Below, one piece after another: positions 4,173 to 22,827 of a DNA stretch of 64,000 nucleotides. The notes beneath the pieces were generated by a model. It did no database searches, had not been told where the DNA came from, and worked only from the letters and a program-made list of their open reading frames with translations. Position numbers and translations under genes: made by a program. Source of the DNA: an uncultured Spirochaetota bacterium (lineage in GTDB: Bacteria; Spirochaetota; Spirochaetia; SZUA-6; Fen-1364). Location: assembly GCA_963745235.1 (NCBI GenBank), contig CAVUXE010000091.1, forward strand, positions 1-64,000, read 5' to 3'. Each line of letters begins with the position of its first letter. Positions within the stretch are counted from its first letter, which is position 1.

Positions 4173-5789
4173 ATGAAAAAAGGAGTCTTCACGCTCCTCA
4201 CTCTGTTTGCCGCGACCCTCGCATTCGGCCTCCAGGTGGACAAGGATGAGCTCAACAAGGGCCAGGGCACCAACATCGTTTTCGTCAACTACGTGGGCCC
4301 GCACACCACCATTGATACCCTGGAGCAGATCCTGGGGATTGGCCAATCCCTGGGCCGGGGCCTGGGAGACAAGCCTGCCGAGCTTTCGTACAACGGCAAG
4401 TACCGGCTGATTCACGCCGTGGGGGCTCCCGAGGGCCAGAAGCTGGACGCTGACATCTTCATCATCGAAGCAGGCGCGGAGGTGGATGACGTCCTGAACA
4501 TCATGCGCATGGTGAGCGGATACCTGCAGGCCGCATATGCCTATTCGCCGGCGGACGCAATGGTGCTTGCGCGGTTCGTCGTGTACTACAACGCCGTCTT
4601 CCGAGGAGACATGAAATATTTCGGGGGGGTCTACAAGACCATCGTCATGAACAACGTCTCGGCGGACAACGCTGGAATCGCCACAACGTACTCGGATTGG
4701 CCGGGAAAGACCCGGATGCTGATTCCCCTCCTGGGCACCGAAAAGGGAAATCTCAACGCCGTGGGCGCGGGGCAGCTCACCAGCCCCCGGGTCGTTCAGA
4801 ACCTCCAGCAGCAGCCGGGCAAGGCGCTTCCCGAGCGCAAGCAGATCACGGAGCTCCAGCAAAGGGGTGTGGAGCAGGGACAGCAGAAGCTGGAGCAGCA
4901 GCAGGCCCAGCTGGAGCAGCAGAAGAAGGAGCTGGGCACACAGCAGCAGCAGCTTGAGAAGTCGAAGCAGGAGGCAGCGCAGGCGCAGGCCGCGGCGGCC
5001 GCCCCGGGAGCCACGGAGCAGCAGAAGCAGGCTGCCGCCCAGCAGCAGGCCCAGGTCCAGCAGCAGGAGCAGGCGGTTCAGTCCCAGCAGCAGAAAGTGC
5101 AGCAGCAGGAGCAGGCGGTCTCGCAGCAACAGCAGCAGCAGGCTGCGAGCCAGCAGTCCGTCCAGCAACAGAGGGCCGGCATTGCGGCGGACCAGCAGGC
5201 GCTCATCCAGCAGAAGCAGCAGCAGGCTGCCGCCCCTGCGCAGCCCGCGGCGCAAGCGGCGCCTCCGGCCTCGGTGCAGGCGCCGGGCCAGGTCTTGTTT
5301 GTCTATGACCTGGGGGAAGCTCCGGATCACCTGGGAAAGCTCGTCCTGATTGACAGGGTTTCCGGAAAGCTTCTTGCACAGTCAGACCTGAACTCCGTGC
5401 GGGGAAGGACCTACGTGACCGTTGGAAAGGTGATCGTGGTTGCCGCGGGCCGAACGGACCGCAACGGGGCAGTGAAGCTGGTGGCGGTGGACCCTGCAAG
5501 CCTGGCGGTGCAGCAGCAGGGCAAAGACAACCTTGTGCCTGCCAGCTACCTTGCGGCCGCGGAGGGCTCCGTCTACGCGGTTCTCGATTCCGGACACGGG
5601 GCCTTCCTGGGCAGATTCGACCAGGCACTCGCCCTGCAGGCGCAGTCGGAGCGCGCGGTCGACCCATATACCTACATTACGGTCTCAGGGACGGAGGTGT
5701 TCGTCCAGGATGATCAAGGCAACATCCTGATCCTGAACAAGGACGACTTGAAGGAGAAAAAGAGAGCGGCGGGCCAGCCGCCGACATGA
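4173..5789 (+). CDS. P83/100-family spirochaete protein with Gln-rich coiled-coil linker
   Basis: Signal peptide; VDKDEL..IVFVNYVGPH..IDT..QI.GIG and YYNAVFRGD..WPGKT motifs resemble the Borrelia/Treponema P83/100 N-terminal domain. Confidence 0.8.
   Translation: MKKGVFTLLTLFAATLAFGLQVDKDELNKGQGTNIVFVNYVGPHTTIDTLEQILGIGQSLGRGLGDKPAELSYNGKYRLIHAVGAPEGQKLDADIFIIEAGAEVDDVLNIMRMVSGYLQAAYAYSPADAMVLARFVVYYNAVFRGDMKYFGGVYKTIVMNNVSADNAGIATTYSDWPGKTRMLIPLLGTEKGNLNAVGAGQLTSPRVVQNLQQQPGKALPERKQITELQQRGVEQGQQKLEQQQAQLEQQKKELGTQQQQLEKSKQEAAQAQAAAAAPGATEQQKQAAAQQQAQVQQQEQAVQSQQQKVQQQEQAVSQQQQQQAASQQSVQQQRAGIAADQQALIQQKQQQAAAPAQPAAQAAPPASVQAPGQVLFVYDLGEAPDHLGKLVLIDRVSGKLLAQSDLNSVRGRTYVTVGKVIVVAAGRTDRNGAVKLVAVDPASLAVQQQGKDNLVPASYLAAAEGSVYAVLDSGHGAFLGRFDQALALQAQSERAVDPYTYITVSGTEVFVQDDQGNILILNKDDLKEKKRAAGQPPT
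4850..5230 (+). repeat. CAG-rich low-complexity tract encoding poly-Gln coiled coil
   Basis: Repeated cagcagcag/gagcagcag runs in frame with ORF 4173..5789. Confidence 0.85.
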
Positions 5790-7380: not shown

Positions 7381-7812
7381 CTACTTCTTCAGCCTGGCGC
7401 TCAAAGTCATTTTTACGCTGGCAAGCGCCTTGGAGACCGGGCAGCCCGCCTTCGTCTCTTCCGCGAGCTTCTGGAATGTCGCATCATCTATCCCGTCAAC
7501 GGATGCCTCGGTTGAGATCTCTATTCCCGTGATTGCGAAACCGTCCCCCTGCTTCTCGATGCGGACCGAGTTCTCCGTCCGGACGGAGTTCACCTTGTAG
7601 CCTTTTCCTGAAAGCCCCCCGGAAAGCGCCATGGAATAGCAGGCGGCGTGCGCGGCCGCGAGCAATTCCTCTGGGTTTGTCCCCTTGCCCGACTCGAAGC
7701 GGGATGCGAAGCTGTAGGGCAACCCCTTCAGGGCGCCGGACTCCGTGCCGAGCGTCCCGCTTCCCTTCATCAGATCCCCGCGCCATTCTCCCTGACCCTT
7801 GCGAACCGGCAT
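7381..7812 (-). CDS. osmC: OsmC-family peroxiredoxin
   Basis: YSFASRFE..GTNPEELLAAAHAACYSMAL and CPVSKAL; ATG 7812 preceded by GGAG. Confidence 0.92.
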   Translation of the reverse strand: MPVRKGQGEWRGDLMKGSGTLGTESGALKGLPYSFASRFESGKGTNPEELLAAAHAACYSMALSGGLSGKGYKVNSVRTENSVRIEKQGDGFAITGIEISTEASVDGIDDATFQKLAEETKAGCPVSKALASVKMTLSARLKK

Positions 7813-7870
7813 GATATTCTCTCCTTTCCCTTCCAAAGATAGCTCTTTGGCGGGCACCGGGAAAGAATGC

Positions 7871-8917
7871 TCACCCGCGGAGGTCAGGGTTCAGAGAGTC
7901 CTTCAGCTTCTGCATGAGCTCGTCTTCGCTCATCTCGTGTTTGTTGATGAACTGCACGGTCCCGATCTGCAGCTTCATCCCCTCGGACAGCTCGACGGGC
8001 TGGAGGTTGACCACCATGATGGCCTTGTTCTCGCTGGAGGCGAGGTTGATCTCGTTCCTCACGTTGCGGGACTCCATGGCCTGCGGGCTCAGGAACACCA
8101 CGAAGAGCTGGCAGCCGGTCAGCGCCCTGCCGACCTCTTCCGGCCACTCGTTGCCGGGCTCTATCCCTTCGTCGTACCAGACCCGATAGCGGGAGTCAGC
8201 CAGCTTCTTGATGACGCCGAAAACCTCGCGCATGTTCTTGTGGGAGTAGCTGGCAAAGAGATACGGCTTTGAGCCGCTGTATGCCTCGATGGGAGGCTTG
8301 ACGGCCGGCGCCAGGCGCGATGCGAGGCGGCGAAGCGAGAAGCCGCGCCGGGAGACGGCGGCGGAGGGCGCCTTGGGAAACCGTGGGGCCGCGGGTGCAG
8401 CGGCCTTGCGCTTCTTTCGAGCGGGAGCCTTCCGTCGAACGGGCGCCCTGCGCCGGGCGGGCCCCTTGCGGCGAACGGCGGTCTTCCGGCGGGCGGGCGC
8501 TTTGCGGCGGCCCGCGCTCTTGCGTCGGGCAGTGGTCTTGCGGCGAGCCACGGGGCGGCGACGTGCGGTTGCCTTTCGCCGGGTAGCCTTCCTTGCCTTT
8601 CGCCGCGCCGGCTTCCTTGCCCTTCGTTTTGCGGGCTTCCGTGCTCTTCCTCTGGCGGGCTTCTTCGCTTTTCGCCGCGCGGGCTTCTTCGCGCCCCGGC
8701 GGGCCGGTCGCTTCGCCGCGCGCCTGGCGGTCTTCCGGGGGCGCCGCGTCTTGCTTCGCTTCACCGCCCGCCGGGCGGTCTTCCGTGCCGGTCGCGCGCG
8801 CTTTCGCCGCGCTTTTGTCCGCTTTGCCGCGGAAGCCCGCTTCGTCGTGCCCCTGCCGGTCCCCTTGCGCCGGGAGGCAGTCTTCTTTTTCTTCTGTTTC
8901 TTCCGTGTGGTCGCCAT
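7871..8917 (-). CDS. TIR-domain protein with N-terminal Lys/Arg-rich histone-H1-like tail
   Basis: C-terminal ~140 aa PYLFASYSH..VWYDEGIEPG.EW..FLSP..S.NVRNEI is a bacterial TIR with the putative catalytic Glu; the first ~207 aa are K/R/A/P/T repeats with no acidic residue. Confidence 0.88.
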   Translation of the reverse strand: MATTRKKQKKKKTASRRKGTGRGTTKRASAAKRTKARRKRARPARKTARRAVKRSKTRRPRKTARRAAKRPARRGAKKPARRKAKKPARGRARKPAKRRARKPARRKARKATRRKATARRRPVARRKTTARRKSAGRRKAPARRKTAVRRKGPARRRAPVRRKAPARKKRKAAAPAAPRFPKAPSAAVSRRGFSLRRLASRLAPAVKPPIEAYSGSKPYLFASYSHKNMREVFGVIKKLADSRYRVWYDEGIEPGNEWPEEVGRALTGCQLFVVFLSPQAMESRNVRNEINLASSENKAIMVVNLQPVELSEGMKLQIGTVQFINKHEMSEDELMQKLKDSLNPDLRG

Positions 8918-8921
8918 TTCC

Positions 8922-10856
8922 CTACCCTACTTCCGTCCTGCGTTTGATGTGGTAGATGGGGTAGCTCCCGAAGCTCTTCGGCAGCACGATGACCCCGACA
9001 TAGCGGCAGTCCAGCCGGTTCCTTGGATCAGTGAGAAGAAGCGCGGCAAAAGATTCACTGGCGTAGACGTTCCCCGGGCTTGTGATGGGCTCGATGCGCG
9101 CGGCCTGGTTCACGTGAAAGCCGAAGACGTTCAGCCGGTTCAGGAGCGGCTCCTGGACGCAGTACACGGGCCCCGCGTGGAGCCCGATCCTGACGCTCAG
9201 GGACCCGGGCAGGTTGAGACGGGCCCAGTCGGTCTTGCGCACCATGTCCCGCAGGGAAATTGCGCACTCGGCCGCCATCAGGGGATCATCGAACGCCAGG
9301 CAGATGGCGTCCCCCCACGTGTTCTTGTACAGGGGTTCCGCGCCAGAGGCTCGAAGCGTCCGCGATACGCCGGTGAGGAATCCCTTGACGTACGCGGGAA
9401 CCTGCTCCTCCGACAGCTTGCTGTATCCCACCATGTCGGCAAAGAGGATGGCCACCGTCTGGCGGCCTTTCCCGGACCCCTCGTGGTGAGGAACGGCCCC
9501 CGAGGAATCCCGTGCCTTTCCGCCACGTGATTGCACCCTGGCGGTCAGCGGATTGATGACGACATACGGGAAGCCGGTCTGCTGCCACAACGTGACGCAC
9601 TCCGATGTCCCGCCCGGCTTCCCGTTGTGCTTTCCGTCCCACACCGCAACCAGGAGCGTCTCGGTCTCCAGGAAACGACTGCGGAGGATGGCCTTGCCCA
9701 TGATGAGCTGGTTTGCGTAGGAGAACAGGATCTCGTTGCCGCTGCGATATCCCCCCCGGGTGGCTTGCTCGACCATCGAGCCTTTTGCAAGGACAGCCCG
9801 CGCGCGTTTCTTCCACGCGGCTCCGGCGAAGCTCACGCTGGTCTCGAAGAAGTCCTCCTTGTCGAAAGGAAGCACAACGTTGCTTTCTCCCCCGCGGGCA
9901 AGGAGGCATTCGTGAAACAGGATGTCGGCTCCGCAGGCAGCGGAGGCGTAGCCGATGCTCGCGTTCAGCTTCGAAAGAAGCGACGCAATCCGCTGCTTCA
10001 CAAGACCGGCTGAGGACTGCGGAAAATGGGGGTTCCCCTGGTCCGGGGCGTCGATCATATGGCCGGTGAAGGCGATAACCGGGGGGACCCGCAAGGTCTC
10101 CAGCACGCTCGGGTCGACCGGGGTATAGCGCGCCAGGAGCGAAAGCTGCCGCCGGGTGCTTGCCAGGTTGGAATAGTTTCGAACGCTTCTTGCCCGGGCG
10201 AGCCGGTAGAACTTTGCCGCCCGTTCCTGGCGCCCCAGGAGGACGAACGCCTCCGCCACCGTTGCCATGATCCAGTAGCCGCGCTGGGAAGGGTCTTTCA
10301 GGAGATCCGCGCAGATCCGCAGCACCTGCCGGGCAACCCGCCGGGAGAGGTCCTTGTCTCCCATGATCAGGCTCAGGCTTGCCGCGTTGATCCCGGAGTA
10401 GTACCCGCGGCTCCTGCGAAAGGCCCCGAGATACAGCTCGCGGGACTTCGCCAGGTGGGGATGTTCCGGCGCCCCCTCACCCTCTATCAGCCACATCTCC
10501 TTGTAGACCCTGCCCAGGATCCCCAGGGTCTCCTCGTCGTAGTGGCCGTCTTTCATCAGCCGGGTGAGCAGGTCCTTGGCAGTGAGAAGAAAACCGCACT
10601 TGATCAGGGAGAGGCAATAACGCTGCGTGATCAGGAGGTGCCCGGGGAAAACGCGCAGCCCTTCCCTCAGGATGTCGTGCGCAAACATCGACTGCCCCAG
10701 GGTGTCCGCCCTCTCTCCGAGACGGAGAAAATAGTACGGGTCCTTTGTCCAGAGCGCCTCGTCCTTCGAGTCCCACAGGACATGGATGACCTGGCCGAGC
10801 CGGCTCCTGTTGCGTTTCAGGAAACTGTCGAAGCGATCCCTGTTCTGTTCCTTCAT
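8922..10856 (-). CDS. TPR (DUF4071/TRAFs-binding-like) + SLOG-like + class III nucleotidyl cyclase
   Basis: ETLGILGRVYK..YYSGINAA..YWIMAT.AEA helical region; AFTGHMID..SAACGADILF..VVLPF..AVWDG..GGT Rossmannoid; ILFADMVGYS..WGDA..RIGLHAGPV..VNQAARIE cyclase. Confidence 0.85.
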   Translation of the reverse strand: MKEQNRDRFDSFLKRNRSRLGQVIHVLWDSKDEALWTKDPYYFLRLGERADTLGQSMFAHDILREGLRVFPGHLLITQRYCLSLIKCGFLLTAKDLLTRLMKDGHYDEETLGILGRVYKEMWLIEGEGAPEHPHLAKSRELYLGAFRRSRGYYSGINAASLSLIMGDKDLSRRVARQVLRICADLLKDPSQRGYWIMATVAEAFVLLGRQERAAKFYRLARARSVRNYSNLASTRRQLSLLARYTPVDPSVLETLRVPPVIAFTGHMIDAPDQGNPHFPQSSAGLVKQRIASLLSKLNASIGYASAACGADILFHECLLARGGESNVVLPFDKEDFFETSVSFAGAAWKKRARAVLAKGSMVEQATRGGYRSGNEILFSYANQLIMGKAILRSRFLETETLLVAVWDGKHNGKPGGTSECVTLWQQTGFPYVVINPLTARVQSRGGKARDSSGAVPHHEGSGKGRQTVAILFADMVGYSKLSEEQVPAYVKGFLTGVSRTLRASGAEPLYKNTWGDAICLAFDDPLMAAECAISLRDMVRKTDWARLNLPGSLSVRIGLHAGPVYCVQEPLLNRLNVFGFHVNQAARIEPITSPGNVYASESFAALLLTDPRNRLDCRYVGVIVLPKSFGSYPIYHIKRRTEVG

Positions 10857-18756: not shown

Positions 18757-19720
18757 TCCAGACACCGGCCGGGGCGTTGGTGCGGGACTCTCCGTCAGCC
18801 GCATCCTGCGCTCGTACGGCATTCTCATCGCGTTCGTTCTGATCTGCATTGCCATGACCATTCTCTCTCCGGTCTTCCTGACCGTGACGAACATCCTGAA
18901 CGTCATCCGGCAAAGCTCGATCTACGGGATCATGGCCATCGGGATGACGTTCGTCATCCTCACGGCCGGAATCGACCTGTCAGTCGGTTCAATCCTGGCG
19001 ATCTCGGGGGCCATCGCGGCGGGGTCCATCAAGGCCGGCCTGGGACTGGAGCTGGTGATCCCCATTGCCCTTGTCATTGGCCTGGGATGCGGCCTCGTGA
19101 ACGGCGTCCTGGTCACGATGGGCCGCATCACGCCTTTCGTCGTGACCCTCGGTATGATGAGCATCGCGCGCGGCCTCACCCTGATCTACACGCAGGGCTA
19201 TCCGGTCAGCGGCTTCCAGGGCGCTTTCCGCTTCATCGGCGGCGGGGACCTCCTCGCCATCCCCTTCCCCATCATCCTGTTCATCCTCACCACGGTCGTC
19301 GCCTGGCTCATCCTTGCCCAGACGCGCCTTGGCCGCTACACGTACGCAATTGGCGGCAACGAGGAGACGGTGAAGCTGTCCGGCATCAACTCGGACTTTT
19401 ACAAGACGATCGTGTACATGATCTCTGGCATCACCTCGGCCATCAGCGCGCTTATCCTCACGTCGCGGTTGAACTCCGCCGAGCCGGTGGCAGGGACGGG
19501 CTACGAGCTGGACGTCATTGCCGCCGTGGTCATTGGCGGGACCAGCCTCATGGGCGGCCGCGGGAGCGTGTGGGGCACCCTGATCGGCGCCCTGCTGATC
19601 GGCGTGATCAACAATGGGATGAACCTGCTGGGCATATCTCCGTATTTCCAGCTCGTCGTCAAGGGAGTCATCATCATTGGAGCGGTCCTGCTGGACCGCC
19701 TGCGCCAGGAACAGATCTAG
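18725..19720 (+). CDS. monosaccharide ABC transporter permease (RbsC-like)
   Basis: GIDLSVG, AIGGN, YELDVIAAVVIGG; multiple TM segments; exact start uncertain. Confidence 0.9.
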   Translation: MPSGLAERSPNPDTGRGVGAGLSVSRILRSYGILIAFVLICIAMTILSPVFLTVTNILNVIRQSSIYGIMAIGMTFVILTAGIDLSVGSILAISGAIAAGSIKAGLGLELVIPIALVIGLGCGLVNGVLVTMGRITPFVVTLGMMSIARGLTLIYTQGYPVSGFQGAFRFIGGGDLLAIPFPIILFILTTVVAWLILAQTRLGRYTYAIGGNEETVKLSGINSDFYKTIVYMISGITSAISALILTSRLNSAEPVAGTGYELDVIAAVVIGGTSLMGGRGSVWGTLIGALLIGVINNGMNLLGISPYFQLVVKGVIIIGAVLLDRLRQEQI

Positions 19721-19803
19721 ACATGGATGTCGAAACGCGGCGGAGCCAGGGATGGCGGAAGCCGCGCATAGACAGCCAACAGACTTTTGGCAGGAGGGAC
19801 GGC

Positions 19804-21018
19804 ATGTCAGTGAAAGCGTCAGTTGAAAAAGCCCTGGACCAGGGCAAGGGCATTGTCCGCCTGGCCCCGAACTGGGTTCCCCGTGCGTTCTGCGTACCGG
19901 GCCGCAGGATCAAGCTCCATCCGGCGGACTACTACTCGTTCGGCGGGGACCGCGGCGGCATCGACGAGCGCTGGTTCTCGTCGACCACGCCGGCGGACAA
20001 CGGGCCAAAGACCAGCCCGAACGAGGGGTTGAGCTTCATCGTGGTTGAGGACGGGAGCAGGACCGAGAAGGTCCTGCTGCGCGAGGCCATCGCGGAGCTG
20101 AAAGGCGCGATCATCGGAGAAAGGATCTGGAACACGTACAAGGCGTGGCCAATGTATTCGAAGTTCTTCGACAACAAGGGCGCGCTCCCGCACCACGTCC
20201 ATCACCGCGAGCAGCATGCAAAGCTGGTCGGGCAGAACGCGAAGCCCGAGTCCTACTACTTCCCGGTGCAGAACAACAACTATGGCGCTGACTACCCCTA
20301 CACGTTCTTCGGCCTGCGCCCCGGCACCACAAAGGACCAGGTGGCCGAGTGCCTGCGCAACTTCTCCAAGGGGGACAACAAGATCACCAACCTGTCCATC
20401 GCGGTCCGACTGGAGGTTGGAACGGGGTGGGACGTGCCGGCGGGAGTCCTTCATGCGCCCGGCAGCCTGTGCACGTACGAGCCGCAGAAAGCCTCCGACA
20501 TCTTTGCCATGTACCAGTCACTCACCGGAGACACTGTCATCTCGGAGGCGGACCTCTGGAAAAACACGCCTCCTGACAAGGTGGGCAACATCGATTACAT
20601 GATCGAAGTCCTCGACTGGGAGACGAACGTGGATCCCAATTTCGTCGCGAAACACTTCATGGCGCCACGGCCGGTCAAGGCCGTCGCGCAGATGGAAGCC
20701 GACGGGTACCGGGAGAACTGGATCACGTACAAGTCCACGGAATACAGCGCCAAGGAGCTGACCGTGTTCCCGGGGAAGACCGTGACGATCAAGGACGGCG
20801 GCGCGTACGGCATGATCATGCTCCAGGGCCACGGAAAGATGGGCGTGTGGGATATCGACACTCCCGCCTTGATCCGCTTCGGCCAGCTCACCCAGGACGA
20901 GCACTTCGTGACGGAGGACGCGGCTCGCGCGGGAGTTGTGATCTCCAACCCATCGCGGACGGACCCCATCGTCATGCTCAAGCACTTCGGCCCCGGGAAC
21001 CCGGATCTGAAGCTCTGA
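19804..21018 (+). CDS. cupin-fold protein, phosphomannose-isomerase-like
   Basis: ERW, KFFD..LPHHVH, KPESYYF, VPAGVLHAPG..YEPQ..SD parallel the type I PMI metal-site motifs; SD GGAGG. Confidence 0.6.
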   Translation: MSVKASVEKALDQGKGIVRLAPNWVPRAFCVPGRRIKLHPADYYSFGGDRGGIDERWFSSTTPADNGPKTSPNEGLSFIVVEDGSRTEKVLLREAIAELKGAIIGERIWNTYKAWPMYSKFFDNKGALPHHVHHREQHAKLVGQNAKPESYYFPVQNNNYGADYPYTFFGLRPGTTKDQVAECLRNFSKGDNKITNLSIAVRLEVGTGWDVPAGVLHAPGSLCTYEPQKASDIFAMYQSLTGDTVISEADLWKNTPPDKVGNIDYMIEVLDWETNVDPNFVAKHFMAPRPVKAVAQMEADGYRENWITYKSTEYSAKELTVFPGKTVTIKDGGAYGMIMLQGHGKMGVWDIDTPALIRFGQLTQDEHFVTEDAARAGVVISNPSRTDPIVMLKHFGPGNPDLKL

Positions 21019-21078
21019 GGCACACCGTATCGATTGACGGCGGCCGTTTTTGAAAGGATACTTGAGGAAAAGGGGGAA

Positions 21079-22827
21079 ATGGCCCTGGAGCAGCCCACCC
21101 GGACGGAGATAGAAAGAGAAGCTGACGACCACATCGCCCTCGGTCTGCTCCTGCGCAAGGATCGGGCCGAGCAGAAGAAAAGTGCCGTCACGAAAGTCCT
21201 TGCCAGTGAGCTCACCGTTTCCCAGAAGCTGGAGAAGATCAGGGAGATAGACGAGAAGGAGGACGCGGTCGGCCTCCTTCGCGTCCTGCGGCAGGTGAGC
21301 ACGCAGCTCCCGCGCAGCAAGGTGAGCCGGATGAGCCGGACCATCAAGCGTCCGCTCCAGCGTCTTTCCCATATCGCCTTCCTGCTCAGGGAATACTCCC
21401 GGATTCAGCAGTTCGGCAGACGCACTCACGTCCTGGAAGCCCGCGTCCTGCCCCCCGGGGTCAAAATGGATCCAAGGCTGCCCGGCAACCTGGTGCGAGA
21501 GCTTCAACCCTCCGCGGCGGACCTGTCCCGCAGGCTCAAACCCTTCCTGGAGCACGGCTGGCTGTACCTCACTCCCCGGCAGTACAACCTGGTGGTCCTC
21601 TTGAAGAGGCTGGCGGACCGTCTGCTGGCTTTCGATTTCATCCGCCTGAACTGGCGTGACCATGATCTCATTGACGGGTTCAGACGCATCGAAAGTCTCT
21701 TCCTCATGCTGCATTACACCCCGGATAGCACGGAGACAATCCTGGAGGCGATCCGCCTTTTCTTCGAGAAGCAGCATGAAGAAGAGGAAGAGATTGTGCG
21801 GACCAGCAGCCTCGTCCTCGAGGTCCTCGCGGAGGATTTCGCCCTGCCTTCTCTGTACAACTGCATTGTCGGGCTGAATATCTTCAAGTACAGGCGACTG
21901 CTGACCCTTGCGGACCTCATGCGCGAGGGCCTGGGGGAAATGGTGGACTCCGGCGGTTTTGACTGCGAAAACCAGGTCCGCGCGCGGGTTGACCAGTACA
22001 TCGATGAATCACTCCAGTCCATGAGGAAAGTCCACGAGCAGCTTCTCGAGACGCGGCGCATCAACAGCTTCATCGGCCACGACGAGGAGGGGGAAGTGGA
22101 CACCACGTCCCTTCGCAGGTTGTACGTCGCCCCCGAGTCCCCGGTGCCGATCGACTTCGAGACCGACCAGGAGAATGTCGTGCTCTTCCTGTCCCGCCTC
22201 ATTCACAGCTTCGACAGGGTCTTCAGGAACCTTCTGAACGGGCAATGCGTGTTCGAGGATGGAACACGAGCCGCGGTGTTCTCGCATTCGTTTTTCGAGC
22301 TGGATTTCTCGAAGATCAGGACGGTGGCGGAAAACCTGGACACGGGACCGTTTCACTTCAGCAGCTTCCCTCTCTCCCGCTATTTGCAGATCAAGGAGCA
22401 GAGACTTGGCACGGTGGGCAACGAGCTGGAGGGCAGCCAGCTGATCGCCGAAGGCGTGGGGTGCCTGGTGGACATCGGCAAGGCCCTGGTGAAGGTCCTG
22501 AGTCTCCGGTCTCTCGCCAGTGCGGCCAGCGAGGAGACGGAGCCCCTGCAGCCCATTGTCCTGCAGGGCAAGCCCTTCACGCTCCCCTTTCAGAGCCGCC
22601 GGCTCCAGGCTCGTTCGGTCCTCCTCCAGGGCAAGACGGTCCTGGAAACGCTGTCCACGGCGGTGTCCATCTGCTTCACCGTGGGGTTCCTTTTCCAGGA
22701 CGACTTTCTCTCCCTCTTCACCGGGAAGGAAAAGAAGCTCGTCACGGACCTTCAGGCGCGCATGAAGCTGATGGAAAACCTTCTGGACCCCGACAACTAC
22801 CGGGAGCTCACCACTCTGTACACCTAA
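21079..22827 (+). CDS. hypothetical helical protein (~580 aa)
   Basis: Long ORF with genome-typical codon usage and purine-rich SD; no recognised motif. Confidence 0.75.
   Translation: MALEQPTRTEIEREADDHIALGLLLRKDRAEQKKSAVTKVLASELTVSQKLEKIREIDEKEDAVGLLRVLRQVSTQLPRSKVSRMSRTIKRPLQRLSHIAFLLREYSRIQQFGRRTHVLEARVLPPGVKMDPRLPGNLVRELQPSAADLSRRLKPFLEHGWLYLTPRQYNLVVLLKRLADRLLAFDFIRLNWRDHDLIDGFRRIESLFLMLHYTPDSTETILEAIRLFFEKQHEEEEEIVRTSSLVLEVLAEDFALPSLYNCIVGLNIFKYRRLLTLADLMREGLGEMVDSGGFDCENQVRARVDQYIDESLQSMRKVHEQLLETRRINSFIGHDEEGEVDTTSLRRLYVAPESPVPIDFETDQENVVLFLSRLIHSFDRVFRNLLNGQCVFEDGTRAAVFSHSFFELDFSKIRTVAENLDTGPFHFSSFPLSRYLQIKEQRLGTVGNELEGSQLIAEGVGCLVDIGKALVKVLSLRSLASAASEETEPLQPIVLQGKPFTLPFQSRRLQARSVLLQGKTVLETLSTAVSICFTVGFLFQDDFLSLFTGKEKKLVTDLQARMKLMENLLDPDNYRELTTLYT

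Follow-up and report, generated by a model that had tools for sequence, protein, structure and literature searches.

We describe a gene on the minus strand of a 64,000-nucleotide stretch of DNA from an uncultured Spirochaetota bacterium (contig CAVUXE010000091.1 of assembly GCA_963745235.1; the whole stretch is hereafter called the window). The gene, designated tail-TIR, encodes a TIR domain preceded by a long polybasic tail. It is a real gene, conserved in uncultured, free-living Spirochaetota of soil and peat, and forms the second cistron of a conserved two-gene operon. The first cistron, designated the partner gene, encodes a protein combining a TPR-S domain, a SLOG-fold domain and a class III nucleotide cyclase. 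The tail-TIR fusion and its partner point to an undescribed two-step second-messenger pathway, which would be a variation on TIR-to-SLOG signalling. The tail-TIR gene, its parts and the adjoining spacer are located as follows (aa, amino acids; nt, nucleotides).

7871..8917, minus strand: tail-TIR gene, ATG start, 348 aa (list of open reading frames and translation).
8288..8917, minus strand: polybasic low-complexity tail, aa 1-210 (by composition: 99 Lys or Arg, 0 Asp or Glu).
8708..8803, minus strand: 48-nt tandem repeat array in the tail (Tandem Repeats Finder).
8569..8687, minus strand: 24-nt (8-residue) tandem repeat array in the tail (Tandem Repeats Finder, period 24, 4.2 copies).
8418..8530, minus strand: 18/36-nt (6/12-residue) tandem repeat array in the tail (Tandem Repeats Finder, periods 18 and 36).
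8258..8401, minus strand: Ala/Pro-rich linker, aa ~173-220 (comparison of the 60 residues before the TIR domain in 42 orthologues).
7922..8257, minus strand: TIR domain, aa 221-332 (Pfam TIR_2, PF13676; E 9.8e-16, 58.8 bits against a cut-off of 28).
8051..8053, minus strand: codon of Glu289, a catalytic-type glutamate (invariant in 41 of 41 aligned TIR domains).
8918..8921, minus strand: 4-nt spacer between the stop codon of the partner gene and the start codon of tail-TIR (sequence).

The tail-TIR open reading frame (ORF) comprises 348 uninterrupted codons. Residues 1-210 include 61 Arg, 38 Lys, 47 Ala, 19 Pro and 15 Thr, and the first Asp or Glu is residue 211. The last 138 residues are mildly acidic (20 Asp or Glu versus 16 Lys or Arg). 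At the Asp plus Glu frequency of four neighbouring proteins (0.108), the chance of finding 210 residues devoid of both is about 4e-11. The tail also contains the most extreme polybasic 80-residue segment of the whole genome, which was scanned as 26,675 stop-to-stop frames of at least 100 aa. The runners-up were mostly rich in Arg and poor in Lys, and are read as out-of-frame products of GC-rich DNA. Periodicity analysis of the protein revealed self-identity with a period of 8 residues (aa ~56-124) followed by a period of 6 residues (aa ~116-172), and the same two periods were present in the DNA repeat arrays. These results bear out the sequence-only reading of this stretch, which had described about 210 residues free of Asp and Glu, blocks of 8-aa and then 6-aa repeats, and a single frame running through tail, linker and TIR domain; that frame was also open in the orthologues. 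Comparison of 42 orthologues showed that the linker holds, just N-terminal to the TIR domain, a short hydrophobic-basic motif conserved within the genus of the window. Orthologues of another family conserve two other short, helix-like elements at this position. These elements may serve in docking or be amphipathic.

The integrity of the frame was examined in Logan contigs of public sequencing runs, which are assembled sequences and not raw reads. A contig from peat run X1, which is possibly the source sample, spans positions 7700-9300 with 3 substitutions and no gap. Soil run X2, from another study, spans 7700-8538 and run X4 spans 8212-8405, both without a gap. No insertion or deletion was listed from any of the runs compared. 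The interval 8250-8420, for which a check of the frame had been proposed, is thus free of insertions and deletions in the assembled contigs of X1 and X2, and as far as position 8405 in that of X4. The third-position GC content (GC3) of the tail-TIR ORF (0.82) is within the range of its neighbours (0.75-0.86). One 173-nt contig of RNA run X20 covers 7857-8029; the library is a metatranscriptome, and the contig is therefore not proof of transcription. Scans for promoters and terminators detected nothing above shuffled sequences near the gene borders. A plus-strand ORF (8289-9530, 413 aa), which overlaps both the tail and the 3'-terminal part of the partner gene, was rejected as a gene as it is antisense to two minus-strand genes with domain support and conservation. 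It is read as a by-product of GC-rich repeat DNA.

The TIR assignment rests on the Pfam TIR_2 match and a TIR (flavodoxin-like) fold. An AlphaFold2 (AF2) model built from a 41-sequence alignment had a predicted local distance difference test (pLDDT) score of 88.2. Foldseek matched this model to the TIR domains of SARM1, BtpA, RPS4, SPARTA and AbTir (E 5.6e-6 to 2e-4, TMq 0.6-0.77). The single TIR sequence had no match at E 0.01 when phmmer was run against the PDB sequences, and the 41-sequence profile was needed. With this profile (best E 1.2e-5), Glu289 was aligned with the glutamate of the helix-C motif of SARM1/TIR-1 and Cat1, which we take to be the catalytic residue. Because this catalytic-type glutamate is present, it is reasonable to read the domain as a putative enzyme. 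The TIR_2 radiation is very large, with 15,700 representatives at E <= 1e-3.

Searching with the TIR region matched 328 proteins (191-609 aa) at E <= 1e-3. A basic N-terminal stretch, defined as at least 40 N-terminal residues with at least 25% Lys plus Arg and at most 5 Asp or Glu, was found in 117 of 121 proteins (the query and 120 listed homologues). The four misses were one protein with two TIR domains and three proteins slightly under the thresholds. The listed homologues with source names came from metagenome-assembled genomes (MAGs) of Spirochaetia or Spirochaetota, and the nearest ESM Atlas cluster, annotated as "hypothetical protein", has 55 members, mostly Spirochaetota. In the genome_contigs set of species-representative genomes, every match with at least 55% TIR identity belonged to Spirochaetota and was tailed; below 55% identity, most relatives have the TIR domain at the N-terminus of longer proteins.

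Conservation of the tail was analyzed in 87 distinct full-length orthologues that adjoin a partner gene and were read from the DNA instead of from gene calls. All 87, which come from uncultured Spirochaetota, have a tail (108-286 aa, median 201), in which the fraction of Lys plus Arg is 0.25-0.56 and the number of Asp plus Glu is 0-8 (zero in 44 of the 87). The share of Lys among the basic residues falls with rising GC content (r = -0.76 over a GC range of 0.42-0.70). Tail identity is 42-60% where TIR identity is 81-94%. Thus, the charge and length of the tail are conserved, and its sequence is not. This pattern fits selection for a polycation over selection for a folded domain.

Searching shorter proteins retrieved 105 apparently TIR-only records of 109-190 aa. 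Seventeen of the 105 could be checked, being letter-for-letter matches in the loci analyzed; in all 17 the frame extends upstream by 104-386 basic codons. Every tail-less public record that could be checked (17 of 17) thus owes its short length to a miscalled start codon. The 120-aa records begin 228 residues short of the 348-aa length, close to the start of the Pfam TIR_2 match (aa 221). As seen in records P0264-P0366, gene callers often begin inside or after the tail, yielding proteins of 120-190 aa. Since these miscalls cut the tail off, the fusion is under-reported in protein databases. A general lack of the tail in close homologues, which would have told against the fusion, was thus not observed: 117 of 121 N-termini were basic, the 87 orthologues were all tailed, and the short records that could be checked were miscalled. 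In 3 of 20 related genomes (G064, G070 and G072; loci L032, L038 and L047), the frame of the tail is odd or broken, and the partner gene of L038 is in three pieces. These are likely assembly frameshifts in repeat DNA, real decay being the alternative.

The partner gene lies directly upstream of tail-TIR on the same strand in all 20 loci fetched from related genomes, with a partner identity of 55-84%. The distance between the two genes is -4 to +36 nt in 86 of the 87 orthologues and 90 nt in one. The terminator scan found no terminator-like site between them on the minus strand. In species-representative genomes, a cyclase gene is just upstream in 44 of 47 testable tail-TIR loci, the exceptions being a locus with the partner downstream, an Anaerolineae locus and a locus with a doubtful tail. 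In metagenome contigs, the partner is upstream in 39 of 42 testable loci, and the three exceptions have TIR identities of 51-57%. The 20-locus, genome_contigs and metagenome sets overlap and are not independent. Among 92 genomes of the order, 34 have both genes, 3 have the partner only, none has tail-TIR only and 55 have neither. In two of the three partner-only genomes, the partner gene is at a contig end where tail-TIR would fall off, and in the third it is a 37%-identical paralogue. Tail-TIR is single-copy. Within the genus, it occurs in 15 of 20 genomes, of which many are incomplete, and its TIR identity across the order is 59-94%. By family within the order, its counts are 17/24, 2/2, 14/21, 0/24, 0/2, 0/5, 0/8 and 0/5. 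Clustering of flanking ORFs revealed synteny within sub-lineages, the pair alone being common to all sub-lineages; the OsmC, GGDEF and Rieske-FAD reductase genes are common to the nearest kin only.

The partner protein, of 644 aa, contains three domains.

8922..10856, minus strand: partner gene, TPR-S + SLOG + class III nucleotide cyclase (Pfam, conserved adjacency and co-occurrence).
10374..10646, minus strand: TPR-S domain (PF20308), aa 71-161 (Pfam E 1.4e-17, 64.5 bits against a cut-off of 27.6).
9522..10139, minus strand: predicted SLOG-fold domain, aa 240-445 (AF2 pLDDT 90.6 and structure comparison).
9021..9461, minus strand: class III cyclase catalytic domain (PF00211), aa 466-612 (Pfam E 5.7e-11).

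The middle domain, searched alone, had no Pfam match, even at E 10, and was assigned from its predicted structure. Its model is that of a SLOG fold, the closest solved structure being YpsA (2nx2; Foldseek E 2.7e-7; VIA-align Z 18.0, root-mean-square deviation 2.5 A over 157 of 178 residues, 19% identity). The VIA-align Z scores were 13.2 for DprA, 13.0 for ShosA, about 11 for LOG and about 10 for the ADP-ribose-binding region of TRPM2. In the cyclase domain, alignment with solved cyclases located the two metal-binding Asp and the transition-state Asn and Arg. Residues D474, D516, R556 and R587 were present in 117 of 117 locus sequences and N583 in 113 of 117, the sequences coming from overlapping sets that were not deduplicated. 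The base-specifying positions are occupied by N512 (117/117) and N576 (115/117). A complex prediction combining aa 1-445 of the partner with the linker and TIR domain (184 aa), with alignments of 19 rows each, had a score of 0.00 and a mark of 0.32, and is evidence neither way.

The association between the two genes extends beyond the polybasic tail. Of 401 genomes sampled from the phylum, 19 have a partner homologue, with a concentration in one family (13 of 17 genomes). Among 17 such loci that were fetched, the TIR subfamily studied here is adjacent in 14, and one locus has no TIR gene. Two of the 14, from Leptospirales MAGs (L112:7001-8293 and L115:6983-8293), encode the partner followed by a protein of ~430 aa with an N-terminal TIR domain, in which a charged linker, one transmembrane helix and a helical C-terminus replace the polybasic tail. 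In genome G230, a TPR-S + SLOG + cyclase gene has as its convergent neighbour a gene (L211:666-3494) for a protein of 942 aa, which begins with a TIR_2 domain and continues for ~800 residues devoid of a Pfam match. Because the Leptospirales transmembrane protein and the G230 protein still adjoin the partner, the link between TIR and partner survives a swap of the appendage carried by the TIR domain. In more distant TIR relatives (~50% identity), the same TIR domain is preceded by several transmembrane segments and a basic juxtamembrane stretch. A metagenome scan seeded with these multi-transmembrane relatives returned matches to the TIR region only, mostly tail-TIR loci. In genome G098 (contig 10), a second copy of the partner encodes a 1017-aa protein (L212:2968-6021) that combines TPR-S, SLOG and cyclase domains with cNMP_binding and SpoIIE/PP2C domains. 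Upstream of this paralogue (~L212:2200-2967), tail-TIR is present only as stop-ridden fragments.

These domain contents suggest a mechanism for the pair. The TIR protein has no nucleotide-sensor domain, and the partner has two candidates for this role together with an output enzyme; the most economical wiring would therefore run from a TIR product to TPR-S/SLOG, to the cyclase and to a cyclic mononucleotide (cNMP). We tentatively propose, giving it a little less than an even chance, a Thoeris-like relay in which an NAD-derived signal, made by a polyanion-tethered TIR enzyme, is sensed by TPR-S/SLOG and prompts the cyclase to produce a cNMP. The tail would hold the TIR domain on a cellular polyanion, most likely nucleoid DNA, RNA, polyphosphate or an anionic membrane surface being possible. 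The likeliest ligand of a 200-residue acid-free tail of Lys, Arg, Ala and Pro is a nucleic acid. The tail would set the local concentration of the TIR domain and, because TIR enzymes are active only upon self-association, the state or amount of the polyanion could gate NAD+ cleavage. The product would be an NAD-derived nucleotide of the cyclic ADP-ribose (cADPR) or ADP-ribose type. Its binding by the TPR-S domain, the SLOG domain or both, in the co-translated partner, would switch the cyclase, which would make a cNMP whose base may be unusual. cNMP-binding proteins encoded elsewhere in the genome would read this signal. The genome has 20 matches to cNMP-binding domains, and the PP2C fusion of the 1017-aa paralogue shows, in its predicted domains, one way in which the cNMP could be read. 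The output of the relay would be a second messenger and not a cell-killing effector. The sequence-only reading had interpreted the protein as a TIR enzyme tethered to the nucleoid, RNA or polyphosphate, which clustering or condensation might switch on or degradation of the chromosome might release. The architecture is confirmed as real, in one frame and conserved; the partner gene had been missed, and conservation of that gene makes it likely that the TIR domain produces the signal in a relay and does not act alone as a suicide enzyme that depletes NAD.

Several observations weigh against the relay or parts of it. We infer the binding events, the enzymology and the direction of signalling, the latter from domain logic only. 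In class III cyclases, the base-specifying pair is Lys/Asp in adenylate cyclases (ATP) and Glu/Cys in guanylate cyclases (GTP). The Asn/Asn pair of the partner fits neither pattern; the pattern therefore does not assign the product, which may, to judge from these residues, be an unusual cyclic nucleotide. The comparison of the tail with histone H1 holds for the acid-free repeats of Lys, Arg, Ala and Pro; it does not extend to the Pfam HC2 family (PF07382), to which the protein of the window had no match at E <= 0.01 and for which a precomputed match existed in only 6 of 120 listed tail-TIR homologues. The appendage alternates between a polycation and a membrane anchor, which suggests that its job is to place the TIR domain on a surface or polymer. 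Given the transmembrane-anchored relatives, tethering to an anionic membrane is a plausible alternative to tethering to the nucleoid, and the job of the appendage may be membrane placement and not nucleoid binding. Tail-TIR genes at 51-57% TIR identity have no partner nearby in L102, L135, L163 and L182, indicating that tail-TIR can exist without the relay. At depth, the distribution is patchy: within the order, 3 of 8 families are represented, and in the phylum sample, 19 of 401 genomes. Such patchiness would also suit a defence system, which is considered below. The TIR domain, moreover, passes the cut-off of the Pfam model ThsB_TIR, which is a domain model and not a system model (25.1 versus 21.2 bits). 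Concerning the four loci without a partner (L102:4604-5716, from an Anaerolineae MAG, L135, L163 and L182), some have repeats of the Lys-Pro-Ala-Ala type, and no TPR-S/SLOG/cyclase gene was present in the fetched flanks. These loci represent either independent use of the fusion or transfer without the partner.

The same wiring could serve anti-phage defence of the Thoeris type, with the tail sensing foreign nucleic acid as it enters, or changes that a phage induces in the nucleoid, and the cNMP triggering growth arrest or alarm through effectors encoded elsewhere. A TIR protein with a SLOG-bearing partner is the Thoeris plan, the ThsB_TIR match agrees with it, and the swaps of the non-TIR part between lineages recall the variable sensor parts of ThsB. 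A recent preprint lists 29 putative Thoeris types (10.64898/2025.12.03.692087), and patchiness above the family level keeps the defence reading alive. We nevertheless consider it unlikely. No defence or mobile genes were found around the pair within the window, its chromosomal position is stable and syntenic within sub-lineages, and the gene is single-copy and occurs in most genomes of the genus. For a defence gene, such TIR identity across the order is high. Output is through a cyclase, with no killing effector, and in one paralogue it leads to a PP2C phosphatase. PADLOC returned no Thoeris match, and the NCBIfam model of Thoeris type III (ThcB4) scored 18.6 bits against a cut-off of 220. A regulatory pathway is thus favoured over a defence island by the housekeeping neighbours, the stable synteny and the strong conservation. 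The most ambitious form of the relay, which we regard as possible and rather doubtful, would be a core regulatory TIR circuit, the first in bacteria: a histone-H1-like tail would hold the TIR domain on the nucleoid or another polyanion and gate it by density or condensation, and the NAD-derived signal would pass through TPR-S/SLOG to a cNMP, possibly with a non-canonical base, and on to cNMP-binding regulators such as PP2C partner-switching phosphatases.

Signalling might also run in the reverse direction, the TPR-S/SLOG-cyclase protein acting as sensor and the tail-TIR protein, parked on the nucleoid or membrane, as an NAD+-depleting effector switched on by contact or by the cNMP. In Pycsar and CBASS, according to the same preprint (10.64898/2025.12.03.692087), TIR domains act downstream of nucleotide cyclases as effectors that deplete NAD, and translational coupling would fix the stoichiometry of the two proteins. 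The cyclase also has a PADLOC match to PycC, but this match is weak (E 2.6e-4) and includes no stretch passing alone. Reversed wiring appears improbable since no nucleotide-sensor domain, such as cNMP-binding or SAVED, accompanies the TIR domain, just a low-complexity tail, and the partner has two domains of kinds linked to NAD-derived ligands. Moreover, the 1017-aa paralogue has its cNMP receiver within the cyclase protein, and the tail-TIR gene upstream from it has decayed. We view as very improbable a last explanation, in which the tail is a generic disordered spacer, a solubility tag or an RNA- or ribosome-associated extension, and the TIR domain a non-enzymatic scaffold assembling with the partner. 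The tail is indeed fast-evolving and built of repeats, and the lineage-specific short linker motifs could dock the TPRs of the partner. However, charge and length are kept over the 87 orthologues with acidic residues excluded, and the catalytic-type glutamate and its surrounding motif are invariant in 41 of 41 sequences, an invariance that a pure scaffold would not need.

Bacterial TIR domains are known almost only from anti-phage systems, in which they either exhaust NAD+ or produce a signal to which a killing effector responds. Three aspects are new. A TIR signal appears to pass to a nucleotide cyclase, by which two second-messenger systems would be chained, an NAD-derived one and then a cyclic mononucleotide. 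The unit behaves as a conserved chromosomal pathway of a whole free-living spirochaete lineage. Finally, a disordered polycationic tail serves as the regulatory appendage of the TIR domain, and relatives have a membrane anchor in its place. On the practical side, the architecture is hidden in protein databases by the gene calls of 120 to 190 aa. The earlier remark that the fusion was not familiar as a described architecture agrees with our literature search, which left aside preprint supplementary tables, Burroughs & Aravind 2020 and Burroughs et al. 2015, and in which no description was found of a TIR domain with a histone-H1-like tail or of one paired with TPR-S, SLOG and cyclase domains.

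The genes flanking the pair in the window are housekeeping genes: a GH42 galactosidase, a BamB-like protein, Borrelia_P83, a Rieske-FAD reductase, OsmC, a GGDEF protein, a transketolase-like protein and a sugar ABC transporter. The Borrelia P83/100 homologue (4173-5789, plus strand; Pfam E 9.8e-88) is consistent with a spirochaete origin of the DNA. Two adjacent plus-strand ORFs, at 19087-21018 and 21034-22827 (643 and 597 aa, GC3 0.72 and 0.81), had no Pfam match at E 1e-5.

The closest known systems are those of Thoeris, which comprise a ThsB TIR protein and a SIR2-SLOG effector, ThsA, in type I, TIR proteins and a SLOG effector in type III, and a TIR protein with ThsI, a CMP-hydrolase-TPR protein, in type VIII. 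The likeness is that a TIR gene adjoins a gene whose product has signal-receiving domains (SLOG, Macro, TPR or similar ones in Thoeris, SLOG together with TPR-S here), that the TIR domain has a catalytic-type glutamate and that the non-TIR part varies between lineages. As stated in the main text of the Thoeris preprint (Yirmiya et al., 2025; 10.64898/2025.12.03.692087), SLOG and TPR are the domain types that receive TIR-made cADPR isomers: in type I, SLOG receives TIR-made 3'cADPR, and in type VIII the cADPR-responsive effector carries a TPR tied to TIR signalling by Burroughs and Aravind. Both domain types are present in the partner. Its TPR-S domain is set beside ThsI by description, and no CMP-hydrolase family was matched in Pfam. 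The main text of this preprint, its supplementary tables aside, mentions no cyclase effector. The pair differs from Thoeris in its output, a class III cyclase, no cell-killing or growth-arresting domain having been found, and would thus yield a second messenger where Thoeris has a killing activity. It also differs by the ~200-residue polybasic tail on the TIR domain and by its scores against curated Thoeris models, none of which was reached in PADLOC or NCBIfam. The unit is lineage-conserved, single-copy and located among housekeeping genes, again in contrast to Thoeris, although deep patchiness makes this test of location non-decisive.

Pycsar and CBASS systems with TIR effectors likewise have nucleotide cyclase and TIR genes in one operon. 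Here, in contrast, the TIR protein has no cyclic-nucleotide sensor domain, the cyclase protein carries its own sensor domains and the PycC match is marginal. The tail resembles those of Chlamydia Hc2, Pseudomonas AlgP and PhaF, which are long, acid-free, low-complexity regions of tandem repeats rich in Lys, Arg, Ala and Pro. These proteins have no TIR domain, and the tail of the window falls below the Pfam HC2 threshold given above. The reported partner of the AlgP tail is the polyphosphate granule (PMC9239181) and that of the PhaF tail is RNA (PMC12818456). Since the known partners of histone-H1-like tails differ (DNA, polyphosphate, RNA), composition does not name the ligand of the tail. In other kingdoms, TIRAP is a TIR protein with a polybasic phosphoinositide-binding N-terminus, to which the basic tail can be likened, and plant TIR-only proteins are reported to be activated by condensation (PMC5796906, PMC10972746), which is only proposed here. 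Their appendages are non-homologous to the tail, and neither has a partner cyclase. Finally, YpsA of Bacillus subtilis offers a non-defence SLOG protein for comparison, a link to NAD or ADP-ribose having been proposed for its clade (PMC6459960). YpsA is a stand-alone domain, whereas the SLOG domain described here is joined to a TPR-S domain and a cyclase and is encoded next to a TIR protein.

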